Shown here: positions 1 through 50,406 of the stretch, piece by piece | Layout of the letters: each line of letters begins with the position of its first letter | Position numbering within the stretch: the first letter of the stretch is position 1 | Position numbers and translations under genes: made by a program | From: Girardia tigrina | Taxonomy: Eukaryota | Assembly: GCA_001938485.1 (NCBI GenBank) | Contig: MQRK01203367.1 | Location: 35,436 to 85,841, forward strand | Length of the DNA: 50,406 bases | Reading direction: 5' to 3' | Notes under the pieces: model-generated | Told to the model about the DNA's origin: nothing | What the model saw: only the letters and a program-made list of their open reading frames with translations | Databases searched by the model: none

Positions 1-128
1 GAAACCGCGACCGTTGTCATGGTAACCGCGACCGTTGCTATGGTAACCGCGACCGTTGTCATGGTAACCACGGTAACTAAGGGCGAGGGTGGGGGTTAGT
101 GAGGGAGAGTGCCCATTTTCCCCCTACT
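1..128. repeat. Terminus of a dispersed repeat (Polinton/Maverick-like TIR end) with a 21-bp X-box minisatellite; element runs off the left edge
   Basis: Three 21-bp units containing GTTGTCATGGTAAC (13-26), GTTGCTATGGTAAC (34-47) and GTTGTCATGGTAAC (55-68), then a G-rich tract and the end ...CATTTTCCCCCTACT (128). The same end occurs at 48040 and, inverted, at 50254. Confidence 0.7.
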
Positions 129-9296: not shown

Positions 9297-10879
9297 TACC
9301 TGTGCGCGGTAGATCACTGAATAAGCTAATAACTGACGATATCCACTGTTAGTTTGTTGGTTATTATCTATTTTTTTCTTATTAAAAGTGTTAAAACAAT
9401 TAGCTATTTCATTTTTATTGTTACGTATTTATTAACAATTAAGTTCACCAAATATACGATTTGGTTAACTTAGTTTTCCTATATTCTAAGTTTTGTAGTA
9501 ATATCAGAAATAGCGAATTCATTGCGTAATAGTTGGTTAGTTGAATTTGTTATTTCTTTTATTACACAATGAATAAAAAACATAATAAATTCAACTTTGA
9601 TTTTTTTATATTTGCCAAACCCTTAGAATTGACTTTTAAATCAGTAACACATTAAAATTTTCTTCTTAACCGTTTCGTGGATTTGTTTGAGTCGTGGTCC
9701 CAAAATATCAACTTCAAATCGATGAAATCGTTGAAAATTTTGAATTTTTTTATCGGTCTTTGGTGGAAATTTATTCATATAAAGAATTGTTTTTAAAAAA
9801 AGTAAAATTTTTTTGATTTATAAGTTTGATTAAAGACAAATAGATTTAATCTATAGCTGATTTCATCTAGAAGATGATTACAGTTGACTTCGCATTGAAG
9901 TCATCTCCACTGTCCTTACACCTCGTGAAGATAGTTTATAATTTGGGCTGACAGTGAGTAACTTAAGATTAATGCTCAATCCTCAATTTATTTAATTTTA
10001 ATTTGCATCTTATTGTTTATTTCTACACTTGAGAAATTGATTATCTCTGTAAGCATAGTTTATCAATCAACTTAATTTCGTTCACCTGATATAATTTTCT
10101 TTTAAAGATTTCATAAATGAGATGTTTCTTGAAATTATAAATAGAGAAATCATTGTCATTCTGTCGACAACAACGAATTTGGTGCCATTGGTAATTGCTT
10201 CATGTTTAGTTCTGAAAAATTGGATTTGGGTGTCAAAAGTCATTCTAGGAAGGGTTTAAAAGGTTTAGTATATGTCATAATATTTTGTCAGTAATATTTT
10301 TGGATACAGAATCAGCTTGAATATTAATACCAAACGAAAATTCTGATCGGATACTTATTTTTAGTTCGAAGCATGAACTTATTCTATTGGGTTTAGAAAT
10401 AGAGAATGAAGATGTAGGTGTGCTAGTTGTATATAATTGGGAATGAAATTTCCAGTTTCCACAAATGAATTGCCATTTCTGATAATATCGGTGTGGTCCA
10501 AATATTCAAGTTAACATAGTATACTGAATAAAACTGCTTGAAAAAGGAACAATTTTTCTAAAAAAGAAATTTCAAAAACGGTAGAAAGATAACCATTTTT
10601 CATGTAATATGTTAGAAATTCAGAATTGTTATTATAATTTTTTGAAAGAATGTAAAATTAAATATACCAATAAAAATATAGAAAATTTATAAAATATGTA
10701 ATTATTTGATGTTTTAAAAAAGTTTTGAATTAATCAAATTTAACGAAACTGTGAAATAATTGTTAATGTGTGTGAAATTTAAATTATTAAATTTGATTAA
10801 AGGTAACTATTTGAAAACGAGAAAAGCTAAAATTTTCTTATATTCATACATCTTTAAAATTTGAAAATATATATATTAT

Positions 10880-11804: not shown

Positions 11805-11964
11805 TAGAAAATATTTTTTAGTCTTAATATTCTAGAATATGTGATAAATAATTAACAATGATGGAAAAAACAGATTCTTCTGCTTCCATGGGTGGGGGCT
11901 ATGAAGAACATTGAGACAATTCTCATTTCAATTTTTATTGCTATTACAATTTTCATTACTATCA

Positions 11965-12438
11965 CAACTCTCAGAAGATCTTTCCCCGTTTAACATCGTT
12001 CTAATGAGTTTCGTTATTTCTGATTTAAATCATGATTATTCGAAAGATTTTTCTTTTATTTTTTAAAATATTTAATTTTTAATAATATTAATTATAAATA
12101 ATAATTTAAACCATTTCTTAATAAAAAGCAAAATAATAAAAATGTTACCATATTATTAAAAATGAATTTAATTTAAATTTTATTAATTTTATTTATATCT
12201 AATTAAATGCTTTTCTTTTCTTAAAAATAATTAATTTAATTTTAATTGTTAATTTAAAAAATATAAGCTTATCAAATTATTATTTTAATTATGTTCCAAT
12301 AATCAATCACTTTAAATTTAAAAAAAAATACCAATTTCCATCTAGGTGGGAGAATCACCATTCTAAATTCAACATACTTAAATCAACATACAGCATCAGT
12401 ACATTTACACATTCAAACAATTTAAAATATTCCTCACA
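11965..12438 (-). repeat. LTR-like repeat, TGTGAGGAATATT family, copy A
   Basis: Ends AATATTCCTCACA at 12438; direct imperfect repeat of 12950-13351. Confidence 0.7.
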
Positions 12439-12879
12439 GGGGCTATTGATATTTATTAATCTTTATTTATCTACTTATTTATTTATTTAATTTTGTTGAC
12501 GGGCATTATTTGATTTATTTTTTATTTTTTTTGTGTCATGTGTGTTTATGTATATGTTTAGGTATTTGTTTTATGAATTTTATCATTTGTTTGTGTCTGT
12601 GCAGGGTTGAAAAAAATCAAAAGGAAAAAAGAAGAAAGTTTAAGATTGAAGGAATTAAAAGATGATTTTTAGGTGCAATTAAATTCTCCCTCCATTCCAA
12701 ACAATTATAATTATTATTAATAATTATATTTTAAAAATTTAAATTTGTAATAAATCAATGAATTGCATAGCAATTCAAAATTATAATCAATATTTAATCT
12801 CAGTCAAAAATTGAAACCGATTTTTTGAATTCTCACTACCTCACTTGAATTCTCTTCTACCATTTTGTACTGAAACTAA

Positions 12880-13351
12880 CATTCAACCTTATTAAGAACA
12901 TTTAAACAAGTCTTGTTTGAATGTTTATTACAATCACATTTAGAGTCATTAAGACTCTCAGAAAGTCTTTCATCGTTTGTCATCCTTCTAATTAGTTTTC
13001 TTATTTCTGTTTTTAATCATGATTATTCGAACAATTTTTCTTAATTATTTTTTAAAATATTTAGCCTCTAAAAATATTAATTAAAAAAATAATAATTTTT
13101 ACCATTTTTCAATAAATCTTAAAATAATAAAAATGTCATCAAATTATTAAAAATGAATTTAATTTAAATTTTACCAAAAAATATTAAACTTAATTTTAAT
13201 TGTGTTCGAATATTCAATCACTTTAAATTTAAATAAAAAAATACCAATTTCTATCTGGGTGGGAGAATCACCATTCTAAATTTAACATACTTAAATCAAC
13301 ATACAGCATCTATACATTTACACATTCAAACAATTTAAAATATTCCTCACA
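12880..13351 (-). repeat. LTR-like repeat, TGTGAGGAATATT family, copy B
   Basis: Ends AATATTCCTCACA at 13351; inverted repeat of 14233-14727. Confidence 0.75.
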
Positions 13352-13359
13352 AGAGGAAG

Positions 13360-14195
13360 CGGGGTTAAACAGTTGCTTGATCGATGGGGAGTGAAGGCGC
13401 AATTCAGATGCGTGAACCGACCGAGCGGAAACGGAATTGTAGAACGGAGCCACCGCACGATCAAAAGAATGGTAGCTCGAAGTGGCGGTCAGGTCGAGGA
13501 GATGATTGCGTGGTACAACACAATACCAAACGCGAAGGGTATAATTCCAGCATCAACGGTGTTTGCGCAAAAACGGAGATTGCTTCTGTCGAAAAAATTC
13601 TCGTTAATGCAACCTCATCCACAAAAAGAATTTAAGAACGACAATCTGACAGTAGGAGACGAAGTTTTTGTTAAGCCAGCACCGCCGTTCAACTGTACTA
13701 CGAAGTGGGCACGGGTAACTATTACCAATGAACCCCAGCTGAATCGCATCAAAGTTAATGGAATGCCATACCACATCAGTCACGTGAAGCGTGCAACCCC
13801 AATATCTACAAAACAAGCAGGAATAGCCAATCAGGAAAGAAATACAACCGACTTGATGAGAGTGGCGAGGATCGAATGGGAGAGCGACGAGGGAACAGAG
13901 TATACTGAAACGAACAATCAGCAAGATCCAAAAGCTGAAGAACGGCCTCGCCGCACGGTGCGTCCACCTATTCGACTCAACGACTTTGTCTGTACTAGCA
14001 ATCAGATTCTCAGTGACGACGAAGTACCTACTTGCTCGAGCAGCGTATGCTTGTGTGCCTTGAAGGCAATGGAGGCGTGTAATTAATTGTGATTAATTAT
14101 TACTTCATTTGTTTTAATCGGTTGTTTGCCGAGGCAGTTTGTTGATTTAAATAAATACTTCTGACGCATATTTATTTTTTCTGATTTAGACGACA
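13360..14195 (+). mobile_element. Gypsy integrase C-terminal half, polypurine tract and short 3' LTR (14078-14195)
   Basis: ORF 13373-14086 has PSGNGIVERSHRTIK, VGDEVFVK and RPRRTVRPPIRLNDF; purine-rich GAAGGCAATGGAGGCG precedes TGT at 14078; the 118-bp segment contains AATAAA and ends GACA at 14195. Confidence 0.85.
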
Positions 14196-14232
14196 TTAAT
14201 TTAAAACATATAATTTTCCTTGACTTTATATG

Positions 14233-14727
14233 TGTGAGGAATATTTTAAATTGTTTGAATATGTAAATGTAGTGATGCTGTATGTTGATTTAAGTATGTT
14301 GAATTTAGAATGGTGATTCTCCCACGCAGATGGAAATTGGTATTTTTTTTATTTAAATTTAAAGTGATTGACTACTCGAACATAATTAAAATAATCATTT
14401 TATAAGTTAATATTTTTTATTTAACAATTTAAATTAAGTTTAATATTTTTTGGTAAAATTTAAATTAAACGCATTTTTAATAATTTGATGACATTTTTAT
14501 TATTTTGGAATTTATTGAGAAATGGTAAAATTTATTATTTTTAATTAATATTAATTAATATATTTAAAAAATGACGTAGAAAATTGTTCGAATAATCATG
14601 ATTAAAGGAGAAAGAAGAAAACTAATTAGAATGATGACAAACGATGAAAGACTTTCTGAGAGTCATAATGACTCTAAATATGATTGTAATAAAGTTCAAA
14701 CGCGACTTGTCTAAATGTTCTTAATAA
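14233..14727 (+). repeat. LTR-like repeat, TGTGAGGAATATT family, copy C
   Basis: Starts TGTGAGGAATATT at 14233; reverse complement of copy B over about 470 bp. Confidence 0.75.
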
Positions 14728-15257
14728 TATGTATTTTTCAAATCAATTATTTTAAAAATCAATTATTTAACAATCCATTTCAAACTTAAATTTTAGTAAA
14801 TAAAATAAATTATTCTTGAAAAAAATGTTAAAATTTATTAAAGATATTTTTAATTATATTTTTTTAGAAAAACTTTTGATTTTAGATATTTTCTTATTTA
14901 AGAAATTATTTATAAAAATTAATTATTTAAAAAATTTTAAGAGTGAACCTGCACCTCACACTATATATTTATATAATTTTTGGTCACTTCAGCTACTTTT
15001 AAATAAAAATGATTTTTCTCAAGGCCAAATATAATTTGTCCTACTCAGGGGGGTAGATATACTAACAGTTGCTCAGTCTATGGATATTGATTAAACGAAC
15101 AGTTGTCTAAGATGTTTTAGAATATTTCTAATAGAGTGAAAAATTTATCAATCTTCTTTCAATGAGAATTTGAACAAACAAATAATATGGTTTAACCAAT
15201 TAAAAGATCCTAATTATTATTATATATTTCAAAATTATATTTATTTTTTATTTAATT

Positions 15258-16139
15258 ATGAACAATACCATAGATTATTGTGGCATGGTACAAGGAGTTT
15301 CGAGAGGTTCACCGACGAATTCGTTATATTATATTTATTTTCCCGTTTATCTGATTGGAATGATCGCAAATGTGTTTCTTTTATACATGTACAAATATTA
15401 TCAAATTAAAGTCCTTGGTAAAAGAGAAACATTTGTATTTTTAATGAAGTCTCTGTCTGTGGCGAACCTTTTCAACTCATTTGTGTTGGTCACAGATCTC
15501 GTCACTCTCATTACCGAATTGTATACATTATATCAATTAATAGAGATTATAATCGGTTTCAAAAATTCAATGCTTATATCACAAAACTTGATCTATGTTT
15601 TACTGGCAATTGATCGATTGTTGGCTGTCACTGATCCGATCAGCACAAGATGGAAAGTAAAGGCTATTAAAGTTATTTTATTTATATTTGCACCAATATT
15701 TGCAATTATAATCGTTTCTATGGAAGTTTGTTTTATTAGTCTCTATTTGAGTTGCATTATACGAACAAATTGCGTCACTTTAATAAGAATATATTATGCT
15801 GGCATTCTAACATTATTTGTTTTGATAAATTATTCGTGTTATATCGGTCTATTTTTGTTTTTTATGTTCCGAGTGAAGAAGAATCCGTCTGACACTTCTC
15901 GAGGAACAATCAAAATGGCAAAGGTTATATTCTTTTCCACAGTTTTATTCAACATTACTCTAATTCCCGGAATTTATTCATCAATTACGAAAATCTACAC
16001 GGGATATATTTTAATTTATATGATATACATAAATATAATTATCAGTCCGATTATATTTATAATTAACAACGAATTCTTGAGAATATTCATTCTATCGAAA
16101 TTGAGATTGATCATAAATGTAGTTCAAACGTATTCTTGA
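15258..16139 (+). CDS. Intronless rhodopsin-like (class A) 7TM receptor, paralogue 1, 293 aa
   Basis: Seven hydrophobic segments, TM1 GMIANVF, TM3 LLAIDRLLAV (DRY variant), TM7 SPIIF (NPxxY variant), N-terminal NNT sequon; ORF intact in both paralogues. Confidence 0.9.
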   Translation: MNNTIDYCGMVQGVSRGSPTNSLYYIYFPVYLIGMIANVFLLYMYKYYQIKVLGKRETFVFLMKSLSVANLFNSFVLVTDLVTLITELYTLYQLIEIIIGFKNSMLISQNLIYVLLAIDRLLAVTDPISTRWKVKAIKVILFIFAPIFAIIIVSMEVCFISLYLSCIIRTNCVTLIRIYYAGILTLFVLINYSCYIGLFLFFMFRVKKNPSDTSRGTIKMAKVIFFSTVLFNITLIPGIYSSITKIYTGYILIYMIYINIIISPIIFIINNEFLRIFILSKLRLIINVVQTYS

Positions 16140-16190
16140 GAATATTCATTCTGTCGAAATTGAGATTGATCATAAATGTAGTTCAAACGT
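16073..16190 (+). repeat. 59-bp tandem duplication over the receptor 3' end
   Basis: 16073-16131 repeated at 16132-16190 with one mismatch; single copy in paralogue 2. Confidence 0.9.
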
Positions 16191-18015
16191 GATCCGATCA
16201 AAGTCGATGAAGATAACAATGTGACACCTTTTTTTGCTCACAAATTACTCACGAATTTTAACATTATTTTTGTTTCCATTTGCACAAAATAGAGTAAATG
16301 AATTTGTTGTCAAATTTAAATAAATTAATAATTTAAAAATATCACTTCTGAAAATTAATAAAATTTTGACAATCCTTACATTTAAGAAAAAAAAACAAAT
16401 TTTCGTATTCTAAAATATAATTTTTCTATGGGAAATATAATGTTTCAATCATAAAAGTAATAAAAAGAGGCATCAATAAATATTAATATAAGTCTTTCAC
16501 GAAGTGACAGTATCAATATTGTTAAGAGAACTCACACATTTGACCGAACATTTATTACATTCACATTTATTATCGTCTTTATGATGATCAATAGTATTGA
16601 TTTCACTTAAATCCATCAATCAATTTTCAATATCTCTCATTATAATCTGAACTATACTTGAGAAGATTATTTTATTTAAAAATATTTACTTTAAATTTTA
16701 TTGGCTGAAATAAAATATTTTTATAGTTATTTTTAAACATTAATTTGATTTTAATTATTTAAAAATTTACAAAAATAAAATCAATAAAATTATTGAAAAG
16801 TTACAAAAATTTACAAAAATTAAAAATTTGAATATTAAATCTAAATTTAAATAAATTAGTTTCAGATTACAAGAATTAAAATATTGATCATCCATCTGGT
16901 TAGGAGAGGCACAATCCCAAATCAACACACAACATTTGAACATGCAAACACTACAAAAAACAATTACACACCCAATATTCCTCACATCCCTCTCGATTTA
17001 AGTGGCTTTAGACATTCCACATTTCTGATCAAAATTTTACCATCTTCTAGCTCCAATTCATGACTTCTTTCATGTCTTCTGCTTTTTACTGTGTCTGGAC
17101 CCATATATCGATCTTCTTCCTTTGTAGCATTTTCTTTTTTTTATCAACACTTTATTCCCGTATGAAATATTCCTTTTGTCTCTATCGTATTTTCGCTCTT
17201 TTCTTTCTTATTACAACTCTGTTTCTTAGTATCTTTCCACCTTTCCGCTGACCTCTTCCCTATTGTTTTCTGTAAAGTTGCGTTTAACGTGAATTTTATT
17301 TCCGGTAGTAGTTCCTCCCAGTCTGATCCTTTCTTTGTATGTAACGACGCGTTTAATATTTTCTAATCGTCCGAAATTGTCTTTCTACAATTCCATTCGT
17401 GTTATGATGGTACGAATTTGAGTAACACATTTTAATGCTCATGCTTTCAGCCATGTCTTTTATTACCTTCGATTCGAATGTTTTACCACAATCTGTATGA
17501 ATCTCTTTCGGAGCACCAAACCGTAAAAACCATTTTGTCATAATTGTATTTTTTTATTGTGATTTCGTCTTGTTTACTAACCGCTGTAAATGAAATATAT
17601 CTATGGAATTGATCGATTATTGCGACAATGTAATTTTTCTTTCTCAATGTTTCTTTTAGTGGTCCACAAATTTCGATATATAATTTCTCAAATGGTTCGT
17701 TTACGACTAATTTTATTCGTTTTTCTTTTGTGACCGTCTTAATTGTTTTGCTTTTTTGACAAACTACACATAGTCCTATCACCTCCTTTATTATTTTATT
17801 TCAGTTGGTCATTTCATACTTTTCTGCAATATATTTTGTCACTTTTCCGCACCAGCGTTAGAAAGCCACGTTTTTTTCTGCATAATCATTTCTTCTCTGT
17901 TTGGATCCGGTATCCAAATTTTTCCTTTGTTCGTCTTTATTATACCATCTATAATCACATGGCTTTTCTTTTTACCTGAATTTATGTTCATCTTTATTTT
18001 TTCCTTGACTCCATC

Positions 18016-21764: not shown

Positions 21765-24700
21765 TGTGAAAATCATATAATAAATTTGCAAGATTTTAAA
21801 AATTGAATTGAAAAGAATTTAATAGATTAATTTGTGGCGAGATAATTAAATTAACAAAAAAATTTGTTTAAATATGTGAATTGTTGTTATATTGATAAAT
21901 TTTGGTGTTAAAAAATGAATTCTGATTTTGATGTTGCAACCACTTTTCACATGGCGACTAACGCTGCAATGGATATCTTCACGGGTCAACTGATACCTCA
22001 AAAGTACAGGAAAGACGATAATGTGGAGACATTTATTGAAGAATGTGAAACATTCTTTAATTTTGCAGGAGACAATAGTCATTTGTTTGTTGGAGAGAGA
22101 TATGAAAGATCGATAAAAAGCGATAGTATACGACAATAGTAGGTTATAAAGACCGATTGAGAAAGGCATTCTCTCGAACTTCCTCACTATTCGAAGACCT
22201 GGCTGAGGCATGCCGGTACAGGATGAAGGAAGACATACTGGAAGTATTTTTTACGAAAGTAGAAAAGCTCGCGGCCAAGATCTTGAAACATGACTTGTCA
22301 AAAGAAGCCCTCACGAAAGCATTATTGTTACATTGTTATGATGATGAGGACATAAAAAATGAAGTGAGAATTAACAAAGTGAAAGGAATAAATGAGATAA
22401 AAGAAAAGATAAAGGCAGTACATGACGTCAAAAGTGTGACAGAAGACATGAATGTAGTAAGAGACCAGGGATGCAAAACAGACTCCGGAGTTACAGAGAA
22501 GCAGTAACAGGAGACAGTAAATACGGACAAAATCAGACAGGGGTTGGTAGAAATACTACAATATACGCTCAAGGCATGAAAGCGGTCAAATGTAGAAATT
22601 GTGAAGACAAATTGTGTAGACAAAGAAAAAATCGATTTTTAAGCACTTTTTTGAGAATTTCAGAAATGTTCGAAAAAATCGATATTTCAGCACTTTTTTG
22701 AAAATATTGATGTGGAATCTGAATTTTCGTATATGGGTTACTATTTAAGTGCATGAGTACATTTTTGATATTCTGCTTCCTTGTGCCTTTAAAATCGATG
22801 TGTATTTTGTGTAAATTTACCCATTATGCTAATTATAGGAAAAAGTAATCAACATATGAAAATTCTAATTTCATATTAAGATAGAAAATCAAAATTTGTA
22901 TCAAACACATGATATAGATATTTGACACTAGTACTTTTAAAATTTTTATGTATTGATTTTTGCACTTCTGCACATGTTTAACGTAAAAAAGCTCTGTGCT
23001 AGCACATTAAAAATGTGCGGCACAATGTGTACTATCAATTGGTATTTTAAAAATATCGATTAGAACATTTCGGTACTGTGCAGTAATCGATTAGCACTTT
23101 TTTCTTAGGTTGCTATGGATACGGTAACCGTTACCATGGTTAAAACCACCTCAAATTACTGTATCCGTTGCTAATGAAAGCATGCAATTTATAATTATTT
23201 GTTTTATAATATTAATTCATATATATTATTATTTTGTTGAATTCAGTAGTTTTAAAATAATATTATAAAACTACTACAATTATATTGATTTTTATAATTT
23301 ATTATGTATCTTATTATTTCTCTTATTTTATAAATGATATTATAAAACTACTACTATTATATTGATAAATCAATAAAGTTGTAGTTTTAGAGTGTTATTT
23401 ATTTTGACATATAGAATTAAATATATAATCTTGTCTCTATCTTTCTTTTAAATTGCATAACCGTGTTCATTTTTAATACTTACTGATTCTTAATCGTTAC
23501 ATAATTTTTGTCTATTTTTCTATATAAAAAAACCGGTTGTAGTTTTATAAATTTAGTTTTAATATTTGTTACAACAATTAAATATTCAAAATAATATTCT
23601 TAGAATAAAATAATATTCTTTTAGAACAATTAAATATTCTTAAGGGAACCAGTAACCAATCAGAAGCGTTTCTGACTAGGCTTCGGTGATCGCGACCGTT
23701 GCTGCCTAGGCTAAGGACATGTGAACCGTCTGATTTTTGCAAATTTTTATTGATTTTGCAAATTTTTATTGATTTTTGCACATTTTACCCTATTGACTTG
23801 CATATTTGGAACTTGATTTTGATTGGCTTAGCACATTTACATTGCTCGGAAACCTGGAACCAATCAGAAACGTTGCTAAAGTGATCGGAACCGTTGCTAC
23901 GGTATTCGGTCCCTTGGTTACCGTTTCTATGGAACCACTGACCAATCAGAAGTGTTTTTGGGTGATCGCGATCCTTGTTAGGGTACCTGGAACCAATCAA
24001 AAGCGTTTCCAAGCAAATCAGAACCATTGCTAAGGACCCTGGAACCAATCAGAAGCGTTTCTATGGTGATCGGAACTATTGCCATGGAGACGGAAACCGT
24101 TGCTATGGCATTGATTATTGATTTTATTAATCGAATTATTGATTTTATTGATTATTATTTTTTTCTGATCGGATCAGACCCCCTTCACTCAGCATTTATT
24201 TATACGGGAAGCGATTCACTTTAAGAACGGATCATAAGGCAATTACGTTTATGGTTAAAACAAAAAAAACGATAACGGCGCAATTTCAGACATGGATAAA
24301 TTATTTATCAAGCCTGGACATACACTTAGAATACAGAAAATAAACAGATCATTCCAACGAGGATATATTGTCTCGGAATACATGTGATACATGCTTGATG
24401 GCTCGCTCATAAAAATGCTAAAATGATTAAGATAAAGACTCGAAGAATCAACGTGTTGGACACATCGTAGATATTCAAAGATCAACAAGAAGAAATAGAA
24501 GAACTTAAAAGAGATCCAAGTTCAGATAAAGACAGAAAGCTTACGATTGAAGATGGCATAATAAGAACAAACATGGGGAAGATTTGGATACTAAAGTCAA
24601 GAAGATACTAAAAGAGAAGAAATGATCATACAAATACATACGTTATTGTCACACGCGGTCGCAGAGAAAGTAACGAAGTACATCTCAGAAAATTATGACA

Positions 24701-26644: not shown

Positions 26645-27645
26645 TCAATTATTTTTCGGTAATTTATTGATTCTCTTCAAAAGATTACACTCTATCTCGT
26701 GAATCTTGTCCTCAATATCTGCCGTAACCGACGGAAACACTTTCTCACACTCTTCTCTCAAGATCTGACCGATTGCGTCTAAAGACAAATCGGAGAATTG
26801 AGAAATCTCTCCTTCAATCGCTCCTTCAAATCTTTCATTGAATTCCTTCTCCAAATTGATATCATCATCGACACTCCTCACCGAATGAGACCGAACCGAT
26901 CCATCCGGCTCAAAACAATCGTGATACGAGTTAGAATCGAGTGTTTCGCACAGCGGAAAAGGAAAAGGCGTCTTATCAGATGGAAGAGTCTCGACAGAAA
27001 GATCTAATCCGAGTACTCTTTCGGCTCTACTGTAACAGAAAACGTACTCAAACAATTTATGGTGTTGAATGAGACCGGACAGAATGAAACCGTTGAGTTT
27101 TTTCATTTCATCTGTCGACAGATTCACCAAAATTCCTTTATGAGAAGAGTTTATTCCGTTTTCATCGCTCATCGAAATCATATCTCTAAAGTCGATTATA
27201 TTCTCTTTAATATTAACGTGTTTCGATTGGATGTTATCGAATAAACAATGAATCGAGTAAAATATCGATGAGAATTTGGAGGTCGTCAACTCGAAATTGT
27301 CTCGTAACCATAACACCGAGTTAACGTAGAAATCAACGATTATCGCTGATTTCAGGTCTAAATCCGGTGATTCCAATTTGAAGTTCGTGATTATTATATC
27401 TTCGATTTCGCCTAAATTCGACGATTGCAAAAGGTTCTTACAAATTTGTTCACTGAGAAAATGAAATGAGTTCGGTTCTTTTCTTTGGTTTTCCGTTGTG
27501 GAATTTTTTGCCAAATTTCTGACATTAGATTTCGGACTTTTCGATCTAAGTTTTTCAAATTTGTTTTATTTATAAACAATTGAAGTAAAAAAACATTTTT
27601 TTTTAAATAACAAATATTAATTTTAAATACTTACCTTGATGTCAT
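26645..27645 (-). CDS. CABCOCO1: CABCOCO1/C10orf107-like ciliary calcium-binding coiled-coil protein, 303 aa; exons 27645-27635 and 27545-26645
   Basis: LKSAIIVDFYVNSVLW, LIQHHKLFEYVF..RAERVLG and PFPFPLCE match my recollection of the family. ATGACATCAAG|GTAAGT donor at 27634 and TTAG acceptor at 27546 define an 89-nt intron that splices in frame (MTSRSKSPKSNVRNLAKN...). Confidence 0.85.
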
Positions 27646-27651
27646 AATTCT

Positions 27652-27665
27652 GTTGTCATAGATAT
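27652..27665 (-). promoter_or_regulatory. RFX X-box immediately upstream of the CABCOCO1-like ATG
   Basis: Minus-strand ATATCTATGACAAC fits the relaxed X-box consensus RTHNYYWTRRNRAC, 6 nt before the start codon of a ciliary gene. Confidence 0.7.
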
Positions 27666-41991: not shown

Positions 41992-42379
41992 ATTATAATA
42001 ATGGAAGAATTTCGTTTAAGTTTTTTTTTAAAATACAAGATAAACAATTGAAATAGAAACTCTATAATTTGAATATTTCTAATAGGACATTTTTTTTTAA
42101 AATGAATTAAAATGAAAGAATTTTCCCGAAATTTTTAAAGGATAAAATTTTAAAAAGATATGTGGTAAAAACAAATAAAATTTGGAATGATGTCAATTTC
42201 CTATTCTTCTTTAAATTAAGATTCGAAAAATCAATAATTATTTATTATTAAGATAAAATTAGAAATTGTAAATGAAACATGCGGTAAGTACTTAAAGTAT
42301 TATAAAGAATTATTAATATTATTTTTTGCTATACAACCTTTTGATATTAAATGAATTTACCAAATAGAACACGAAAACT

Positions 42380-42765
42380 TTAGTTTTCTGAAAGCTTTTT
42401 TCATCGAGTGTCAGAGTCATACTGATCAAATCAATTTCCAGTGGATTGAAGATGTAACAGTTCCTGAACACTAGCCTCATATGGTTGATATTCTCGTCAG
42501 CGTTGAAATAGAATTTCTTTATCAATAGATTATTGATTGTCTTAAAATCCATTTGGATAATGAACGATTTTAGTATGCGCAGTGTGATCCACATGATGGA
42601 GAAATTGAAACGAATATTTATGAAGTATTAGTTGAGGTAGAATTTTCTTTTCGATAAACTGAAGCCGATTTGCAAGAATATTTGCCGGGCAAGATCGATC
42701 GGAACTGACAACAGTTTTTTTTCGATTTGTTGGGAGACCTCAACACAGTCATCCGAAATGAGCAT
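42380..42765 (-). pseudogene. BET-family first bromodomain (BD1) fragment, frameshifted
   Basis: ANRLQFIEKKILPQLILHKYSFQFLHHVD (compare TNQLQ..LWKHQFAWPFQQPVD), then a frameshift into MDFKTINNLL..FRNCYIFN (compare MDMGTIKKRL..FTNCYIYN). Confidence 0.75.
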
Positions 42766-43333
42766 ATTTGATAAGTAATTGATGAATGAAAAATGGAATG
42801 GGTCTTTAGAAAAATCGAAAAATCATAATTTGAAAAAAATAAAAATAGTGAAGAGAAAGTGAAATTTAAATTTATTATTAAACATCAGAAAATCCGTTAA
42901 ACAAATTGCTCAATTATCAAAAATAACAATAATTAATTTTGTCATTGTTATTTTCGGTTACTATTGAGAATTTTAGCACTAAGAACTTTTTGTTATAAAT
43001 AACAATATGTGATTTTACTATAAAAATATATTTGAAAATATTGTTATTATTTTTGGTCTCTACAACTACTTTTACATGAAAATGATCTTCCTCAAGGCGA
43101 AATATAATTTATTTGTACTCGAGGGGGGGTAGATATACTAACAGTTGCCCAGTCTATGGGTATTGATTAAACGAACAATTGTCTAAGATGTTTTAGACTA
43201 TTTCTAATAGAGTGAAAAACTTATCAATCTTGTTTCAATGAGAATTTGAACAAACAAATAATATGGTTTAACCAATTAAAAGATCCTAATTACTATTATA
43301 TATTTCAAAATTATATTTATTTTTTATTTAATA

Positions 43334-44209
43334 ATGAACAACACCATAGATTATTGTGGCATGGTACAGGGACTTTCGAGAGGCTCACCGACGAATTCGT
43401 TATATTATATTTATTTTCCCGTTTCTCTGATCGGAATGATCGCAAATGTATTTCTTTTACACATGTACAAATATTATCAAATTAAAGTCCTTGGTAAAAG
43501 AGAAACATTTGTATTTTTAATGAAGTCTTTGTCTGTGGCGAGCCTTTTCAACTCATTTTTGTTGGTCACAGATCTCGTCACTCTCATTGTCCAATTGTAT
43601 ACATTATATCAATTAATAGAGATTATAATCGGTTTCAGAAATTCAATGCTTATATCACAAAACTTGATCTATGTTTTACTGGCAATTGATCGATTGTTGG
43701 CTGTCACTGATCCGATCAGCACAAGATGGAAAGTAAAGGCTATTAAAGTTATTTTATTTATATTCGCACCAATATTTACAATTATCAATGTTTCTTTGGC
43801 AGTTTGTTTTATTAGTTTCTATTTGAGTTGCATTATACGAACAAATTGCGTCACTTTATTAAGAATATACTATACGGGCATTCTAACATTACTTGTTTTG
43901 ATAAATTATTCGTGTTATATCGGTCTATTTTTGTTTGTTATGTTCCGAGTGAAGAAGAATCCGTCTGACACTTCTCGAGGAACAATTAAAATGGCAAAGG
44001 TTATATTCTTTTTGACAGTTTTATTCAACATCTCTCTCATTCCGGGTATTTATTCATCAATTACGAAAATCTACCCAGGATATATTTTAAATTATATGTT
44101 ATATTTGAATATAACTATCAATCCGATTATATTTATAATTAAAAACGAATTTTTGAGAATATTAATTCTCTCGAAATTGAGATTGATCCTAAATGTGGTT
44201 CAAACGTGA
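43334..44209 (+). CDS. Intronless rhodopsin-like (class A) 7TM receptor, paralogue 2, 291 aa
   Basis: Same architecture as 15258-16139, DRLLAV in TM3, NPIIF in TM7; about 28 amino-acid differences counted by eye. Confidence 0.9.
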   Translation: MNNTIDYCGMVQGLSRGSPTNSLYYIYFPVSLIGMIANVFLLHMYKYYQIKVLGKRETFVFLMKSLSVASLFNSFLLVTDLVTLIVQLYTLYQLIEIIIGFRNSMLISQNLIYVLLAIDRLLAVTDPISTRWKVKAIKVILFIFAPIFTIINVSLAVCFISFYLSCIIRTNCVTLLRIYYTGILTLLVLINYSCYIGLFLFVMFRVKKNPSDTSRGTIKMAKVIFFLTVLFNISLIPGIYSSITKIYPGYILNYMLYLNITINPIIFIIKNEFLRILILSKLRLILNVVQT

Positions 44210-47135
44210 TCCGATCAAAGTCGATGAAGACAACAAATGTGACATCTTTTATATTCACAAATTACTCACGAATTTTAACATTACTTTTGTTTTCATTCGC
44301 ACAGAATAGAGTCAAAGAATTTGTTGTAAAATTTCTTTAATTAATAATTGTAAAAATATCACGTTGGAAAATAAATAAAATTTTGACAATCAATAAATTT
44401 TATGTTTTAAAATTTTAATCATTTCTCAATTATTGAAATTTGTCAACGTCAAGGAAATTAACTCCTCATAAATTTAATGCCAAACAATTATTAACAAAAT
44501 CAATTAAATTCAAATTACAACGATTTCGATTTGTCGTAATATTTCTCTATTTCTAGTGGTTATATCTCGTTATTTGAATAAAAATTTATCCTTAGTAATT
44601 TTACAATTAAATATATCTTTGTTTGGAAATATCGTTTGAATTTTTACCATGTTTATGAAAACGAATCAATTTTGTTTTTTTTGTCATTGAGCAAAAGTGC
44701 CCGGTTGGTACATAAATAAATTCGCCGCATGTATCGCCCTGAAGGCGTCCTTTACACCCGGCCCTGGTTTCCACAGGGGTTCTTTCACTAGCGGCCTACC
44801 CCCGCACCCATCACTTGGGTGAACGTTTCCGCCAAGCCTGACACTTTCACTCACTGCATCCTTAATAACTCATCATCGAATTCCGTAAAATTTTTATTTT
44901 AATCTTCATCTCTCAATGGTTTAATATCGATTTTATCACTCTTTGCTTTATTTTGATTTTTTCTTTTGTAAATTATTTTTATTATTATATATCTGTTTTC
45001 TTTGATTATTTTTTTACTATTGATAACACCTTGTCGATATATGTCTTTTGAATTCTTTTATAATTCTTGAACATTCTCTTTGATTCTCTTTTCTAAACGT
45101 AAAGCCTCCTCTCGACATGCCTGTTGCGGTAGCGCAGTAATTCAATACTCCCACGAGGCGCCAAAGTGGGGAGGACGTTTTTGTTACCGTTATAATAATT
45201 ATTATTATTATTTAAATATATACGTAGACAAAACACATCATATATTTTTGGCAATTTGATAGTCTGTGGCTTTGATGAGGACCATTCCACGGTCCCGAAT
45301 GATTGTCCCAGACAACAATCATTCGAAATGAATATCACGATTATCTCCTTCTTCATCGCCATGACAAACAAACCACGACCGAGACTCTGTCATTCTTGCT
45401 GCCAACGCATTTTGCAAGCAAACGGGCAACGAAACCCCACTCCTGACAAGATCATCCTCTGCCAACGGAGAATAAAAGGCATCTTTAATATCTTTGAAAT
45501 TTCAATATTATTAATTATTTTATAATAATTTTAATTTGATCTTCTTTCGTAATGCTCTTTTTAGGACTATATCCCAGACTTAATACATTCGTTTAATCGT
45601 GGTTGTGATTTTCTTATACTCTTTCATTTGTTAGGATCAGAGAGCTTTTCCTTTGGCTCGGCCTCGGGCCTATTCATTGCACCGACATCGAGGCGGGCAA
45701 AAGAGAAGACTCTCAGGATCTAAAAACCAAAAAATAAAAATGATTATAATTATAAATTATAATATTAATTAATTAAAGAAAAGAAAAACTTTTAATTGGT
45801 TTTGGACCTTGGTTCCATTGAATTGAATATTTTCTGGTGGGAATTGTTGACCTGATTTTTTAACGTGGGTTTGGTCGTCTTCGGATTGTTTCTATCTGAG
45901 TGATGTATGATTGAAGGTTGACTGTAAGAATTGTCTGCTTTCTGGTTCTGTGAGTTTTTGTAACGTAAGGTTGGTATAAATTCGTCTGATTTTGAACACT
46001 CTACCAGAACTTTTATCATTAAATATATTTTTTAAAAAGAATTTGACTTGGTAAATTTTACCTTTAATTTTTTTTGTTGATTGAGGTTTTGAGATGTCCT
46101 CATGGTTGCCGATTCGTCGATGGGTAACGGCAGATGCTGATAGTGCCTACCGAGACTGTTGATGATCAAGCAGTAAATATTTCTCGAGAATATTTGTAAG
46201 CTACCGATCTGTCAATAAGAGGTGACAGGTGCTTTTAGTGCCTGCCGAGCCTGTTGACGATCTGGTTGTGAAAAGACGTTATTGTTAAACTGAGGATTTG
46301 TCTTTACTTATCTCCATCAACTATTTTTTATTTATTTATTTTTTATTTTTTTATTTTCATCAATAAATCCACTTCTCATCCTCAATTAGTTAATGAATAG
46401 ACCGATTTATGAAAAAGAAGATAGAGGGTTGCTTCATGAGCTTCAGAAAAGGAGGGAAGAAATTGTCAAAATTACAAAAAGAGTTGTCCGAAAAAAAATG
46501 GAGTTCGAGGAATACAGAAGAATTTCAGTTCCTTTATCAGTACACAAACCGATGGTGGACAAATATATGTTATCGCAACAAAAAAACAAAGGCCTTACAG
46601 GTTGAAATTACTGAGTTGAGGATTCAACAAAATATTTCGGAGTACCACAAAAAGATCATAAAGAAAATCCCCAGGAAGATCCTGCGATGATCTTGGAGAC
46701 TGCTTCTAGAATTGCAGCGAAGGAATCCATGGATGCGAAAGATTGAAACCTTGATTCATCTTCAATAATTCATGAATCTATCAATAAGGATGATATGATG
46801 GCATCAATGACCGGCAAAATGAGCCGAACAAAGAAAAGGCGCGAGCAACGAAAACGAAAGGCGCAACTATTCCAACAAGTAGAAACTGAATTGAAAAAGA
46901 TTCAAGGTTCAGGCTCAGGTACATTGGATGATTATGCAGATGTTATGTATCATGTCAGTGCATGTTTTAAGTACAATAGGAGTTTTTACATGTCATTTCT
47001 ACATATAATATAAAACGTTACGTATCTTGGATACGGTAACAATGGTACTTGGGATTGTTGATGCCTACGCTGGGGTACATTAAGCGATTCATGAGGTATT
47101 GTTTGATGGTAAATAACATACATATATCACATGGG

Positions 47136-47166
<31 letters not shown>

Positions 47167-47185
47167 CGAAAAAAGTACTTGGCCC

Positions 47186-48040
47186 CGATTTTTGAGCACA
47201 TTTTTGAGAATTTCAGAAATGTTCGAAAAAATTGATTTATCAGCACTTTTTCAAAAATGTTGATGTAGAACCTGAATGTACGTATACGGGTTATTATTCA
47301 AAAACATCAGCACTTTTTTGAAATTCTGCTTTCTTGTCCCTCTACCTAGGCCTAAAATCGATGTGCATTTTGTGTAAATTTGCACATTATGCTAATTATA
47401 AGGAAAAGTAATCAATATATAAAATTTCTAATTGCACAGTTAGATAGAAAATCAAAATATGCATCAAACACACGATATTGATTTTTGCACTTTTGCACAT
47501 GTGCAACGTAAAACACATTGTGCTGGCACATTATAAATATGCGATACAATATGCACTATCGATCAGCACTTTAAAAATGTCGATTAGCACATCTTGGCAC
47601 TATGCAGTAATCGATTAGCACTTTTTTCTATGGTTGTTATGGAAAGGGGCACGGTTGCTATGGATACGGTAACAGTTACCATGGTTACAACCGCCTTGAA
47701 TCACTGTATACGTTGCTAATGAAAAACGTCCCTTGGTTACCGTTGCTGTGGTAACTAAGACCTTGGTTACAGTTGCTGCCAGGCTAAGGTGATAGAGACC
47801 GTTGTTAGAGTAACCGGAACCGTTGATGCTTAGGGCTAGGGTGATCGGAACAATTGCTAGGGGATTACTGACTAATCAGAAGTGTTTTTGGGTAATCGCG
47901 ACCGTTGCTAGGGTACCAAGAACCAATAAGAAGCGTTTCCAAGTGAACCGGAACCGTTGCTATGGTAACCACGACCGATGCCATGGAAACTGGCTACCCC
48001 CACGGGGGATGTGGGCGAGAACCAGCATTTTCCCCCTACT
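47186..48040. repeat. Longest intact copy of the X-box/CCAAT repeat (Polinton/Maverick-like TIR), ending CCCCCTACT
   Basis: Homologous to 22630-24197, 1-128 and 50254-50406; X-boxes such as GTTGCTATGGTAAC (47956-47969) and GATGCCATGGAAAC (47977-47990). Confidence 0.8.
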
Positions 48041-48520
48041 TACATGTTTTAAGGAACAACTATAATAATTATAATAAAAGTATAACAAGTAACTGTCATA
48101 ATAGAAAGAGACACATTCGTCGAGTAATAAATGCAATAGTCAAATTCACAACTTTAAAAGGAAAAACAACGAGGAAAGATACTTGACCTCTGACTTGTGT
48201 CTTTGAATTTATCGAGTCATTTGATAGACCTTGTCTATTTTATATCAGATGGACTTCTTCAACTCTGATAGATATGAATCAAATTGATCTGAAAATTATT
48301 CCGTGATTACATGTTGTGGAGGTACAAAAATTTGACAAGGTTTGATTTAAAGAATCAATAATCCACAATATAAAATAAGATAGCGAATAGAATATCGAAT
48401 TCCTTTTTGTATTATTTATGATAAATTTTTTATTATTTCATAATTTTATTATACATCATTTAAGGATCCAAACCTAGTGTCGTAAAATGGAATTGGAATC
48501 AATATTAACCCTTCTAAGTA

Positions 48521-50207
48521 CTTCGGCTGTCCCGAAAGTCCTCAGGTGGCCTTTAAAAACACACTAATATTTTACCAAATTTAACCAAATTTGGACTGAA
48601 TATTATTCAGACTGTCATAAATACTGTGTTAAAATTTCAAAGCATAACATTTGAAACTTACCAAAAAAATAATATTAATAACCAACAAAAGAAATTAGAT
48701 GCAGTGAATTTAAAAATTTATTTTAAAAATTTCTTAAGCAACAACATTGTTGTCAATAACCAACTGACAATAGTTAAAAAGTTTTTCTAGTTGATTTTTT
48801 AATGTTTCTGTTGATAAAGAATTAAAAAAGAATTTACAAGCTTCTTCAATTTCTTCATGTGATTTGAAAACATGATTTTTAAAGCTTTTCTTCATTTTTG
48901 AAAGCAAGAACCTGTCATACAGATTAAAATCTGAACTATAGGGCGATTGATAATTTTTTTCAATTTTTCTTCTTTCAAAAAAATAGTTGTTTCTTTGCTA
49001 GAATGAGGTCTTGCATTATCATGCCACCACTTAAGTTCCTTTAGCTTGATGCTGTTAGATCTAAGTTTCCGCCATTTTTCACCGGTGTCATGACCAAAGT
49101 TCACATACGCCTCAGAATCAATCTTGGTACCATATGGCAGTGCTTTTATATTAAAACGTTTGTTTCAGGTAAAGGTTACGAAAACAAGAGATTTTTTATC
49201 AGTCATTGGCGATGGCTTTATCACTTTTGGTAGAACAGCATTAGAAGGAATCCAAACATTGTAATCTTCTTTCTTTTCTCTACATTGGAAAAAGACCCAT
49301 GTCTCATCCTCGATCGCTATGTTGGAATATGCTTCATCAACCATCTGTGAAATTACATGGCTTATATGCTTTGCAAATTTGTTAATTTTGGTGCGGATTA
49401 AACAAGGTGTTTTGCGGCCGGTTTAACTCTAAAAATAATTATAGTGTACCCTCTTGCCCCTACTTTTTGTACCTTCAGTTGTCAATCAGTGCAGTAGCGA
49501 CCCGTATCAATTTAACATTGAAGTTATCTTGAACTTTTTCAATTCAAGTATTTTAATTTAAATTATTAATGTTTGAATGGGTTGCGTTAATGCGTTGTTG
49601 TTTATTAGCAGCAGAAAGTTCGCGAGGGACCCAAACAGAGCAAACTTTTTTAAATGAAGTTTTTCACGCAAAATTTTGTAGACTGTATTTTTACCTAAAG
49701 AAAGTTCATTTTCAATATAACGCAAAGACGCATTTGGAGCTTTATCAATCACTTCTTTGACTGCTTTAATCTTTTCATCGTCTATTAATGACGGTCTGCC
49801 ACTTCTTGAGTAATCGTCGAAGGTTGTCCGCTTTTCTTTTTTAAAATCAGTCAACCATTGTTGAATAGTTTTCAGTGCTGCGTGATTTGCGCCTTCCCAT
49901 GCCTGCTGAAGTTGCTGAAGAATTTCTGAAGCAGAGAATCCTTTTTTACTTTGAGTTAGAACAAAAAAAACGTTGACAACATTTATTTGGTTCCATTGTT
50001 AAAAACCGCTTGATTTGAATTCGCTGCACTTTTAAAATTTCAATACTTTAATAAAACAAAATTTTACTTTTCTTTTAATTTTATGCTTTGAAATTTTAAC
50101 ACAGTATTTATGGCAGTCTGAATAATATTCAGTTCAAATTTTGTGAAATTTGGTAAAATATTAGTGTGTTTTTAAAGGCCACCTGAGGACTTTTGGGACA
50201 GCCTAAG
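48521..50207 (-). mobile_element. Full-length defective mariner (about D34D) with 127-bp TIRs and TA TSD
   Basis: TIRs 48521-48647 and 50081-50207 flanked by TA; transposase pieces RSGRP, WVPREL, EDETW, HDNARPH, PYSSDFNLYD; frameshifts, stops and an internal insertion near 49355-49560. Confidence 0.93.
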
Positions 50208-50253
50208 TATATGTATATTTATATACATAGCAAAGTAAAATCTATATATCAAT

Positions 50254-50406
50254 AGTAGTGTAAAAATGGGCATTCTCCCTCACTTAACCCCCCCCCCTGC
50301 TGGTAACCATAGCAACGATATGGGTTATCGTGGTTACCATGGCAACCGACCCGATTAACATAGCAACGGTCGCGGTTACCATAGCAACGGTCGCGATCAC
50401 CTTAGT
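50254..50406. repeat. Terminus of the X-box repeat in inverted orientation; element runs off the right edge
   Basis: Begins AGTAGTGTAAAAATGGGCATTCTCCCTCAC, reverse complement of about 90-128; X-boxes GTTACCATGGCAAC (50333-50346), ATTAACATAGCAAC (50354-50367) and GTTACCATAGCAAC (50375-50388), 21 bp apart. Confidence 0.75.

Follow-up and report, generated by a model that had tools for sequence, protein, structure and literature searches.

Why would a mobile repeat carry, one after another, copies of the 14-bp X-box known from the promoters of ciliary genes, and to what sort of element would such a repeat belong? The question is raised by a window of 50,406 nucleotides, by which is meant the whole stretch of DNA that was analysed. 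It is AT-rich animal DNA (G+C 0.31) with scaffold gaps, and in it lie four mutually homologous, related and non-coding copies of one repeat, together 2,709 bp. The initial annotation had taken the four for copies of one mobile repeat with X-boxes in it; their homology is confirmed and the mobile setting is supported.

The window and its four repeat copies

The genes and elements of the window are Gypsy fragments, a mariner-like element, two copies of a 7TM-like gene, a USP24/9X-like exon and a CLAMP/C1a-32 ciliary gene, with two homologues found for the CLAMP-domain protein and one for the USP protein. All the repeat copies are surrounded by further transposon debris. Both window ends lie inside the repeat, which suggests that the assembly breaks there. 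The features needed for what follows are these, TIR being terminal inverted repeat.

1..128, minus strand: copy 1, putative outer TIR end, truncated where the window begins; terminus 5'-AGTAGG at 128
13-68: X-boxes of copy 1, three exact, 21-bp period
22627..24112, minus strand: copy 2, putative older TIR remnant without terminus; two AT-rich insertions, at about 23180-23640 and 23730-23845
23845..24112: higher-order unit of 51-52 bp, made up of X-box, 17-bp spacer with CCAATCA, degenerate X-box and 7-bp spacer
26645-27665, minus strand: CLAMP/C1a-32 (CABCOCO1-like) gene, a host gene outside the element; likely short first exon, intron of about 85 bp
27652-27665, minus strand: X-box with one mismatch, a host feature, 7 nt upstream of the likely ATG (27645) of the CLAMP/C1a-32 gene
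44400..47185: single-copy inner flank of copy 3; short broken reading frames on both strands
47186..48040, minus strand: copy 3, putative TIR remnant and the most complete, 855 bp; terminus at 48040, read inward
47186..47628: inner AT-rich domain of copy 3, GC 0.32; six occurrences of a second motif, ATCGAT-n-AGCAC-T-run
47633..47990: outer domain of copy 3; 14 X-box-like units, three exact to the published consensus
47991..48034, minus strand: G/C-rich subterminal segment of copy 3, a candidate core origin
48035..48040, minus strand: end motif of copy 3, 5'-AGTAGG, where homology to copies 1 and 4 stops
50254..50406, plus strand: copy 4, putative outer TIR end, truncated where the window stops; terminus at 50254, 5'-AGTAGT; three of its four boxes exact

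Read inward from its terminus, copy 3 has a G/C-rich end of about 50 bp, an outer domain of 360 bp and an inner domain of 443 bp. Its final 15 nt are identical to copy 1, and its inner domain is 85% identical to that of copy 2 (64 substitutions in 433 aligned bases); copies 4 and 1 are 75% identical over 142 columns. The ATCGAT-n-AGCAC-T-run motif is found five to six times per copy (47186-47628 and 22633-23104), the first two occurrences being about 48 bp apart, and may be bound by some other factor or by a protein that the element encodes. G-runs close behind the ends of copies 1 (79-110) and 4 (50275-50300) could, judged by eye, be G-quadruplexes or GC-boxes. Copy 2 is placed between gag-like and RNase H sequence of one Gypsy element whose protease-RT part is missing, the gag assignment being by eye and without a Pfam match. 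It had been drawn as far as 24197; it ends near 24112, and from about 24180 the sequence is Gypsy RNase H, so a degenerate copy 2 terminus near 24195 was rejected.

Inward of copy 3, the flank of about 2.8 kb is possibly an accessory region of the element. No Pfam family reached the cut-off in the 23 frames scanned there; positions 46552-46891 have 54-60% identity to protein P0010, and near 47030 there is a 14-nt match to the array, the best of four comparisons, reached by 2 of 200 shuffles. Two 37-bp direct repeats, at 46131 and 46226, are in the same flank.

Several further observations concern the neighbourhood. The 7TM/GPCR-like gene is intronless and duplicated (14965-16383 and 43038-44400, DNA identity 88%); it is without a Pfam match, and its Atlas likeness is to invertebrate rhodopsin-like or serpentine receptors in generic 7TM clusters. 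Between copies 3 and 4, at 48519-50209, is a Mariner/Tc1-like element with a broken transposase and 133-bp inverted repeats that are 95% complementary. At 11900-14727 three related repeats of 460-540 bp, two direct and one inverted, flank an integrase-like frame (13295-14086) and are possibly nested element ends. A bromodomain match (E 6e-5) in the minus-strand frame 42322-42627 is probably from a host exon.

Predicted RFX sites in the array

Could the array be a gene product rather than a set of DNA sites? A non-coding RNA was rejected, no Rfam family being found at the gathering threshold. A coding repeat was rejected as well: the 21-bp unit does keep a reading frame, which spacings of 29, 31, 37 and 52 break, and the array frames gave no Pfam match.

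As DNA sites the units are easier to place. An ideal RFX site is given in PMC2797782 as an inverted GTTGCC repeat with a spacer of 0-3 nt, and the terminal units nearly equal it. The X-box consensus used here is the published one, GTHNYYATRRNAAC (bioRxiv 10.1101/2020.08.21.260547). It is matched exactly at ten sites in the four copies (three each in copies 1, 3 and 4, and one in copy 2; 2,709 bp) and at none in the remaining 47,697 bp of the window; with one mismatch allowed there are 20 in the copies and four elsewhere. By these published definitions the array units are near-ideal predicted RFX X-boxes, as was first claimed. The enrichment in the copies goes back to a very small number of ancestral units multiplied in tandem; the ten sites are not independent events. 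The pattern on which the 21-bp unit was originally said to be centred, GTTRYYATRGYAAC, is matched exactly at each of the six sites cited for it (13-26, 34-47, 55-68, 47956-47969, 50333-50346 and 50375-50388; ten strand matches), a count attained in none of 100 shuffles. It had been credited to all four copies, which is right for copies 1, 3 and 4 but wrong for copy 2, where the best sites have two mismatches.

Thirty-four units were registered by hand, a procedure biased toward the GTTGC half, and against the consensus 10 were exact, 7 had one mismatch, 5 had two and 12 had three or more. Registered by that half, they give 1.1-2.0 bits per column in GTTGCY-A and 0.1-1.5 in the spacer. Hand registration took the place of a spacer-anchored alignment of the units, which was dropped with 7 of 22 matches out of register. 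By Tandem Repeats Finder, positions 3-69 and 50328-50395 are arrays with a 21-bp period, and 23941-24082 is one with a period of 52 bp. Is the array then one of 21-bp units, as had been described? That is the commonest start-to-start gap (14 of 29), but the others are 20 (two), 29 (one), 30 (four), 31 (six) and 37 bp (two). Expressed as turns of the helix, 27 of the 29 gaps (20-21 or 29-31 bp) come to about two or three, and the earlier notion of helical phasing fits these two spacer classes while the third, of 37 bp (2 of 29), is out of phase. The evidence for phasing is weak because the gaps reduce to these three classes.

CCAAT boxes and the higher-order unit

The 51-52 bp unit is present in copies 2 and 3. 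CCAAT boxes of copy 2 are at 23860, 23942, 23993 and 24045, with a fifth in register at 23656, and at 23942, 23993 and 24045 the match to CCAATCA is exact. The spacing of about 51 bp reported for CCAATCA holds for those three, but there is no exact CCAATCA in 47186-48040, where copy 3 has only decayed forms (47872 and 47923), and those parts of copies 1 and 4 that are within the window have no CCAAT boxes. Window-wide, CCAATCA occurs 14 times against 8.5 expected, six of the 14 in copy 2; as 6 of 100 shuffles attain 14, this is not clear enrichment.

Termini and the identity of the element

What kind of element ends in this way? In three different flanks the homology of copies 1, 3 and 4 stops at one base (128, 48040 and 50254), and from there inward copies 1 and 3 read AGTAGG and copy 4 reads AGTAGT, a listed Maverick motif in three of three intact ends. 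The commonest end of vertebrate Mavericks is, according to PMC8097293 (Barreat and Katzourakis), 5'-(AGT)2//(ACT)2-3', i.e., AGTAGT//ACTACT. The supplement of PMC8097293 lists AGTAGG//CCTACT too, for tuatara Mavericks; it has 37 and 41 occurrences there, mostly, among the matches listed, as tuatara end motifs. That reference set is vertebrate, and the host of the repeat is probably an invertebrate. By composition the chance of an end beginning AGTAG is 0.001, or 0.003 for any of the three listed motif types. The shared non-coding length, at least 855 bp with no Pfam match in its frames, is inside the 46-1,447 bp range given for Maverick TIRs (PMC8097293); the Anolis TIR is put at 584 bp (PMC3014272) and that of C. 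elegans at 744 bp, in an account that also describes strains with only TIR insertions at a locus (bioRxiv 10.1101/2024.01.15.575659).

Because three of them share a sharp end with listed Maverick/Polinton motifs, the four copies are most likely TIR remnants, and going by sequence it is quite probable that they are of the Maverick/Polinton family, with at least two end variants. What was initially seen as a free-standing minisatellite element is then probably a TIR instead. Membership of the family is unproven because neither a Maverick gene nor a TIR pair nor a target-site duplication is present in the window. The core genes (pPolB, capsid, ATPase, cysteine protease) had no Pfam match in the 182 window frames (19+23+140), and the integrase matches in the window sit in Gypsy elements. 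Within the window neither an inverted TIR partner nor a 6-bp target-site duplication was found; copies 1 and 4 have different flanks, and no target sequence shared by the three outside flanks was found. A duplication candidate for copy 3 was rejected, the adjoining 6-mer recurring once, at 46987, which is about chance level, with no end motif after it. Copies 1 and 4 are turned toward the outside of the window, and the bodies of their elements are probably beyond its ends, with the body of copy 2 and most of that of copy 3 probably deleted.

Might another class of mobile repeat end like this? Helitrons and Helentrons are defined by a subterminal hairpin and TC...CTRR (or T-rich) ends, and Foldback or MULE-like elements with long TIRs by paired modular TIRs and a 9-bp duplication. 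A repeat with an internally repetitious end could be Foldback/MULE-like, a Helentron or HINE with a minisatellite, or Crypton-type, and RFX sites would still be possible in it. That the window is without a Maverick gene, TIR partner or duplication favours such a reading, as does the combination of a tandem-repeat outer with an AT-rich inner domain that recalls Foldback TIRs; here the modular layout fits, with no pair within the window. The inner match of copies 2 and 3, moreover, ends within about 7 nt in both, as if at a second true end. However, that common inner boundary is explained if truncation there affects copy 2 alone, and the ends equal two listed Maverick motifs. Hairpins were not significant at either end (AGTAG end, z 0.1 to 1.4; inner end, z -1.2 and -1.35), and by eye no complementary short repeat joins the two ends of copy 3. 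A Helitron is disfavoured because neither end folds better than shuffles; the plus strand ends in CTACT and the flanks are varied. A fold-back junction at the inner boundary was rejected, the fold there being no better than in shuffles. Membership of some other class is on balance improbable, and the Maverick/Polinton TIR is the identity carried forward.

Host factor, element protein or slippage?

If the copies are Maverick TIR remnants, what would their array do? The layout of the repeat, its end motifs and its match to the X-box are observed; Maverick identity, binding, function and any cell-type timing are inferred. The preferred reading, to which a probability of about 0.55 is given on sequence and analogy, is that the array of these Maverick TIR remnants would recruit host RFX, with NF-Y, as an enhancer or an auxiliary origin. 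The terminal core beginning AGTAG(T/G) would serve protein-primed replication and integration, a role of the terminal bases that is itself an inferred one for Mavericks, of which PMC6431247 has a general description. The outer array may have grown by tandem duplication of the 21-bp unit and of the 51-52 bp X-box-plus-CCAAT unit; it would attract host RFX dimers, with NF-Y predicted at the CCAAT boxes, and the assembly would act as an enhancer for the genes of the element or as an auxiliary element beside its protein-primed replication origin.

The same Maverick TIR could carry an array with a different history. Many elements have subterminal repeats to which their own transposase binds. The boxes may bind an element-encoded protein (integrase, terminal protein or polymerase, or an accessory winged-helix protein), or the array may be a slippage minisatellite, with the match to the X-box incidental in either case. 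Here the conservation of the boxes is pertinent, and on this point the expectation that X-box positions would be more conserved than spacers found no support. Between copies 2 and 3, in three ungapped blocks, there are 14 substitutions in 106 box positions and 13 in 84 elsewhere (p=0.68), the inner domain being similar (64/433); in 11 terminal units deviations are 18 of 154 in boxes and 16 of 77 in spacers (p=0.08), and 13 of 88 in degenerate and 5 of 66 in invariant columns (p=0.21). Boxes without excess conservation suit an element-encoded binder or a minisatellite, and so does the small number of ancestral units, by which the enrichment becomes one or two events multiplied. The comparison of boxes with spacers has little power on decayed copies and speaks neither for nor against function in the live element, because copies that decayed after insertion would look just as uniform.

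What does the palindrome do elsewhere? Scanned for a tandem pair of near-perfect boxes, GTDB yielded four loci, three in bacterial intergenic DNA and a fourth, L002. In L003 (9950-10050) the tandem pair is between a MarR-family gene and an FAD monooxygenase and is likely an operator, which is again in favour of a binder other than RFX; in L001 and L004 the pairs are near 10001. Because it is found in three bacterial intergenic regions, the palindrome alone does not name its binding protein. Among phage records no relatives of the repeat were found. The fourth locus (L002:1959-2096, on WPAE01000165.1, a contig of 2,254 bp assigned to an Ignavibacteria MAG) carries a pair of perfect X-boxes at a distance of 21 bp, a weaker third, CACGTG boxes and, beside the X-boxes, a 15-bp tandem repeat which we take to resemble a YY1 site. 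Its ORF gave itself and four short matches, with no Atlas match, and it matches the repeat in the boxes only. To the eye it looks eukaryotic or mobile, possibly host contamination that comes from another mobile element of the same design, and it is a hint that the X-box arrangement may recur in other lineages.

Against an element-encoded binder or a minisatellite stand the exact matching of a 14-bp eukaryotic consensus in ten places, in several sequence variants, and the building of a second host motif, the CCAAT box, into the higher-order unit. Also, only 14 of 42 single substitutions leave the consensus intact, yet it is kept in six of seven units in copies 1 and 4, with events too few for significance. 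An element-encoded binder and a minisatellite, taken together, are viewed as unlikely, and host RFX as the better candidate.

A third possibility would be that the host keeps the remnants, whether as RFX/NF-Y enhancers or as decoys, for the benefit of nearby genes such as the CLAMP-domain ciliary gene, which is 2.5 kb from copy 2. The X-box at this CABCOCO1-like gene had been called genuine. The site exists (27652-27665), and its presence in the window lends host retention some colour, but it has one mismatch and is one of four such sites outside the repeat; the start codon and intron of the gene were placed by eye against comparison protein P0001. For TIR-derived repeats there is a precedent of re-use, at C. 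elegans eri-6/7 (bioRxiv 10.1101/2024.01.15.575659). Nevertheless, divergence between copies 2 and 3 is even, at 13-15% whether one takes the boxes, the spacers or the inner domain; insertions interrupt copy 2, which has one exact box left; and every copy sits amid debris of transposons. Retention by the host is very improbable.

Comparison with known systems

Maverick/Polinton TIRs (PMC8097293; C. elegans Polinton_CE_TIR) are like the repeat in their AGTAGT/AGTAGG ends, non-coding length and occurrence as TIR remnants; they differ in that the repeat is here without genes, partner TIR or duplication in view. In the literature searched, which was titles and listings with most subscription papers and Repbase outside its scope, there was no description of an X-box/CCAAT array in a Maverick TIR and no paper on host factors acting on Maverick ends; exact 14-mers brought up only papers unrelated by title. 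The supplements of PMC10748475 and PMC8502044 had no Maverick TIR sequences for comparison. Probably, then, the kind of element is known and its regulatory architecture undescribed.

Use of RFX by a viral or mobile element, as first suggested, does have a precedent: per PMC5760533, RFX1 and RFX3 bind the AAV inverted terminal repeat, and further RFX sites are in the enhancers of HBV and polyomavirus. There, as would be the case here, the end or enhancer of a DNA virus has an X-box for host RFX. However, those are vertebrate viruses with sites shown by EMSA and ChIP, whereas the sites of the repeat are predicted ones, in an integrated element, with at least 14 tandem boxes per TIR plus CCAAT boxes. 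The X-boxes of ciliary genes (DAF-19/RFX; bioRxiv 10.1101/2020.08.21.260547) share the 14-bp consensus, but a ciliary promoter has a single box near the start of a host gene in place of an array in a mobile element.

The analogy drawn earlier with the MHC class II enhanceosome is good for the order of the motifs and for a similar span. Inward from the terminus an X-box is upstream of an inverted CCAAT, and from box start to the end of ATTGG it is 47 nt in four of seven units, 46 in two and 56 in one; the total XY length of MHC-II genes is given as 47-49 bp (PMC4381081), with motif ends defined otherwise than here, and with spacings of 21 and 31 bp some box will be near many chosen distances. 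It fails for the rest of S-X-X2-Y (PMC4381081, PMC2278383), the repeat being, by eye, without an S or X2/CRE element. Between X and Y the repeat has, besides, an extra degenerate box 7 nt from every CCAAT (seven of seven). The MHC-II site is for the RFX5 complex, in contrast to the symmetric boxes of RFX1-3 type here, and CIITA is a vertebrate factor.

The adenovirus ITR, another protein-primed linear DNA end, has a core origin plus auxiliary NFI and Oct-1 sites. It resembles the repeat in having a short terminal repeat followed by host-factor sites; it differs in its host factors, in having no tandem amplification and in not being integrated.

What the array may mean for Mavericks

How far might this be taken toward particular cells? 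In its most extended form the proposal is that the RFX/NF-Y array of the TIR, helically spaced, would activate the element in flagellated germ cells or in multiciliated ones, at the level of either transcription or replication, and so tie animal Mavericks to the programme of the cilium and flagellum. This is doubtful. Timing by cell type is a further step because RFX factors act broadly and can repress, both of which are recorded in PMC5760533. Should RFX binding fail, the repeat would be an ordinary Maverick TIR fragment with a minisatellite. As it stands, a TIR of repeated near-ideal RFX boxes predicts a host factor, RFX with NF-Y, and ciliated or spermatogenic cells for transcription. Mavericks encode capsid homologues, and in the account of PMC8097293 particles had not been observed; if the prediction is true it shows in which cells to look for Maverick activity and for particles, elusive in animals. 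It would also carry the viral use of RFX at DNA ends beyond AAV, to a virus-like transposon that is integrated and whose scattered remnants could seed RFX-bound sites in the host genome.
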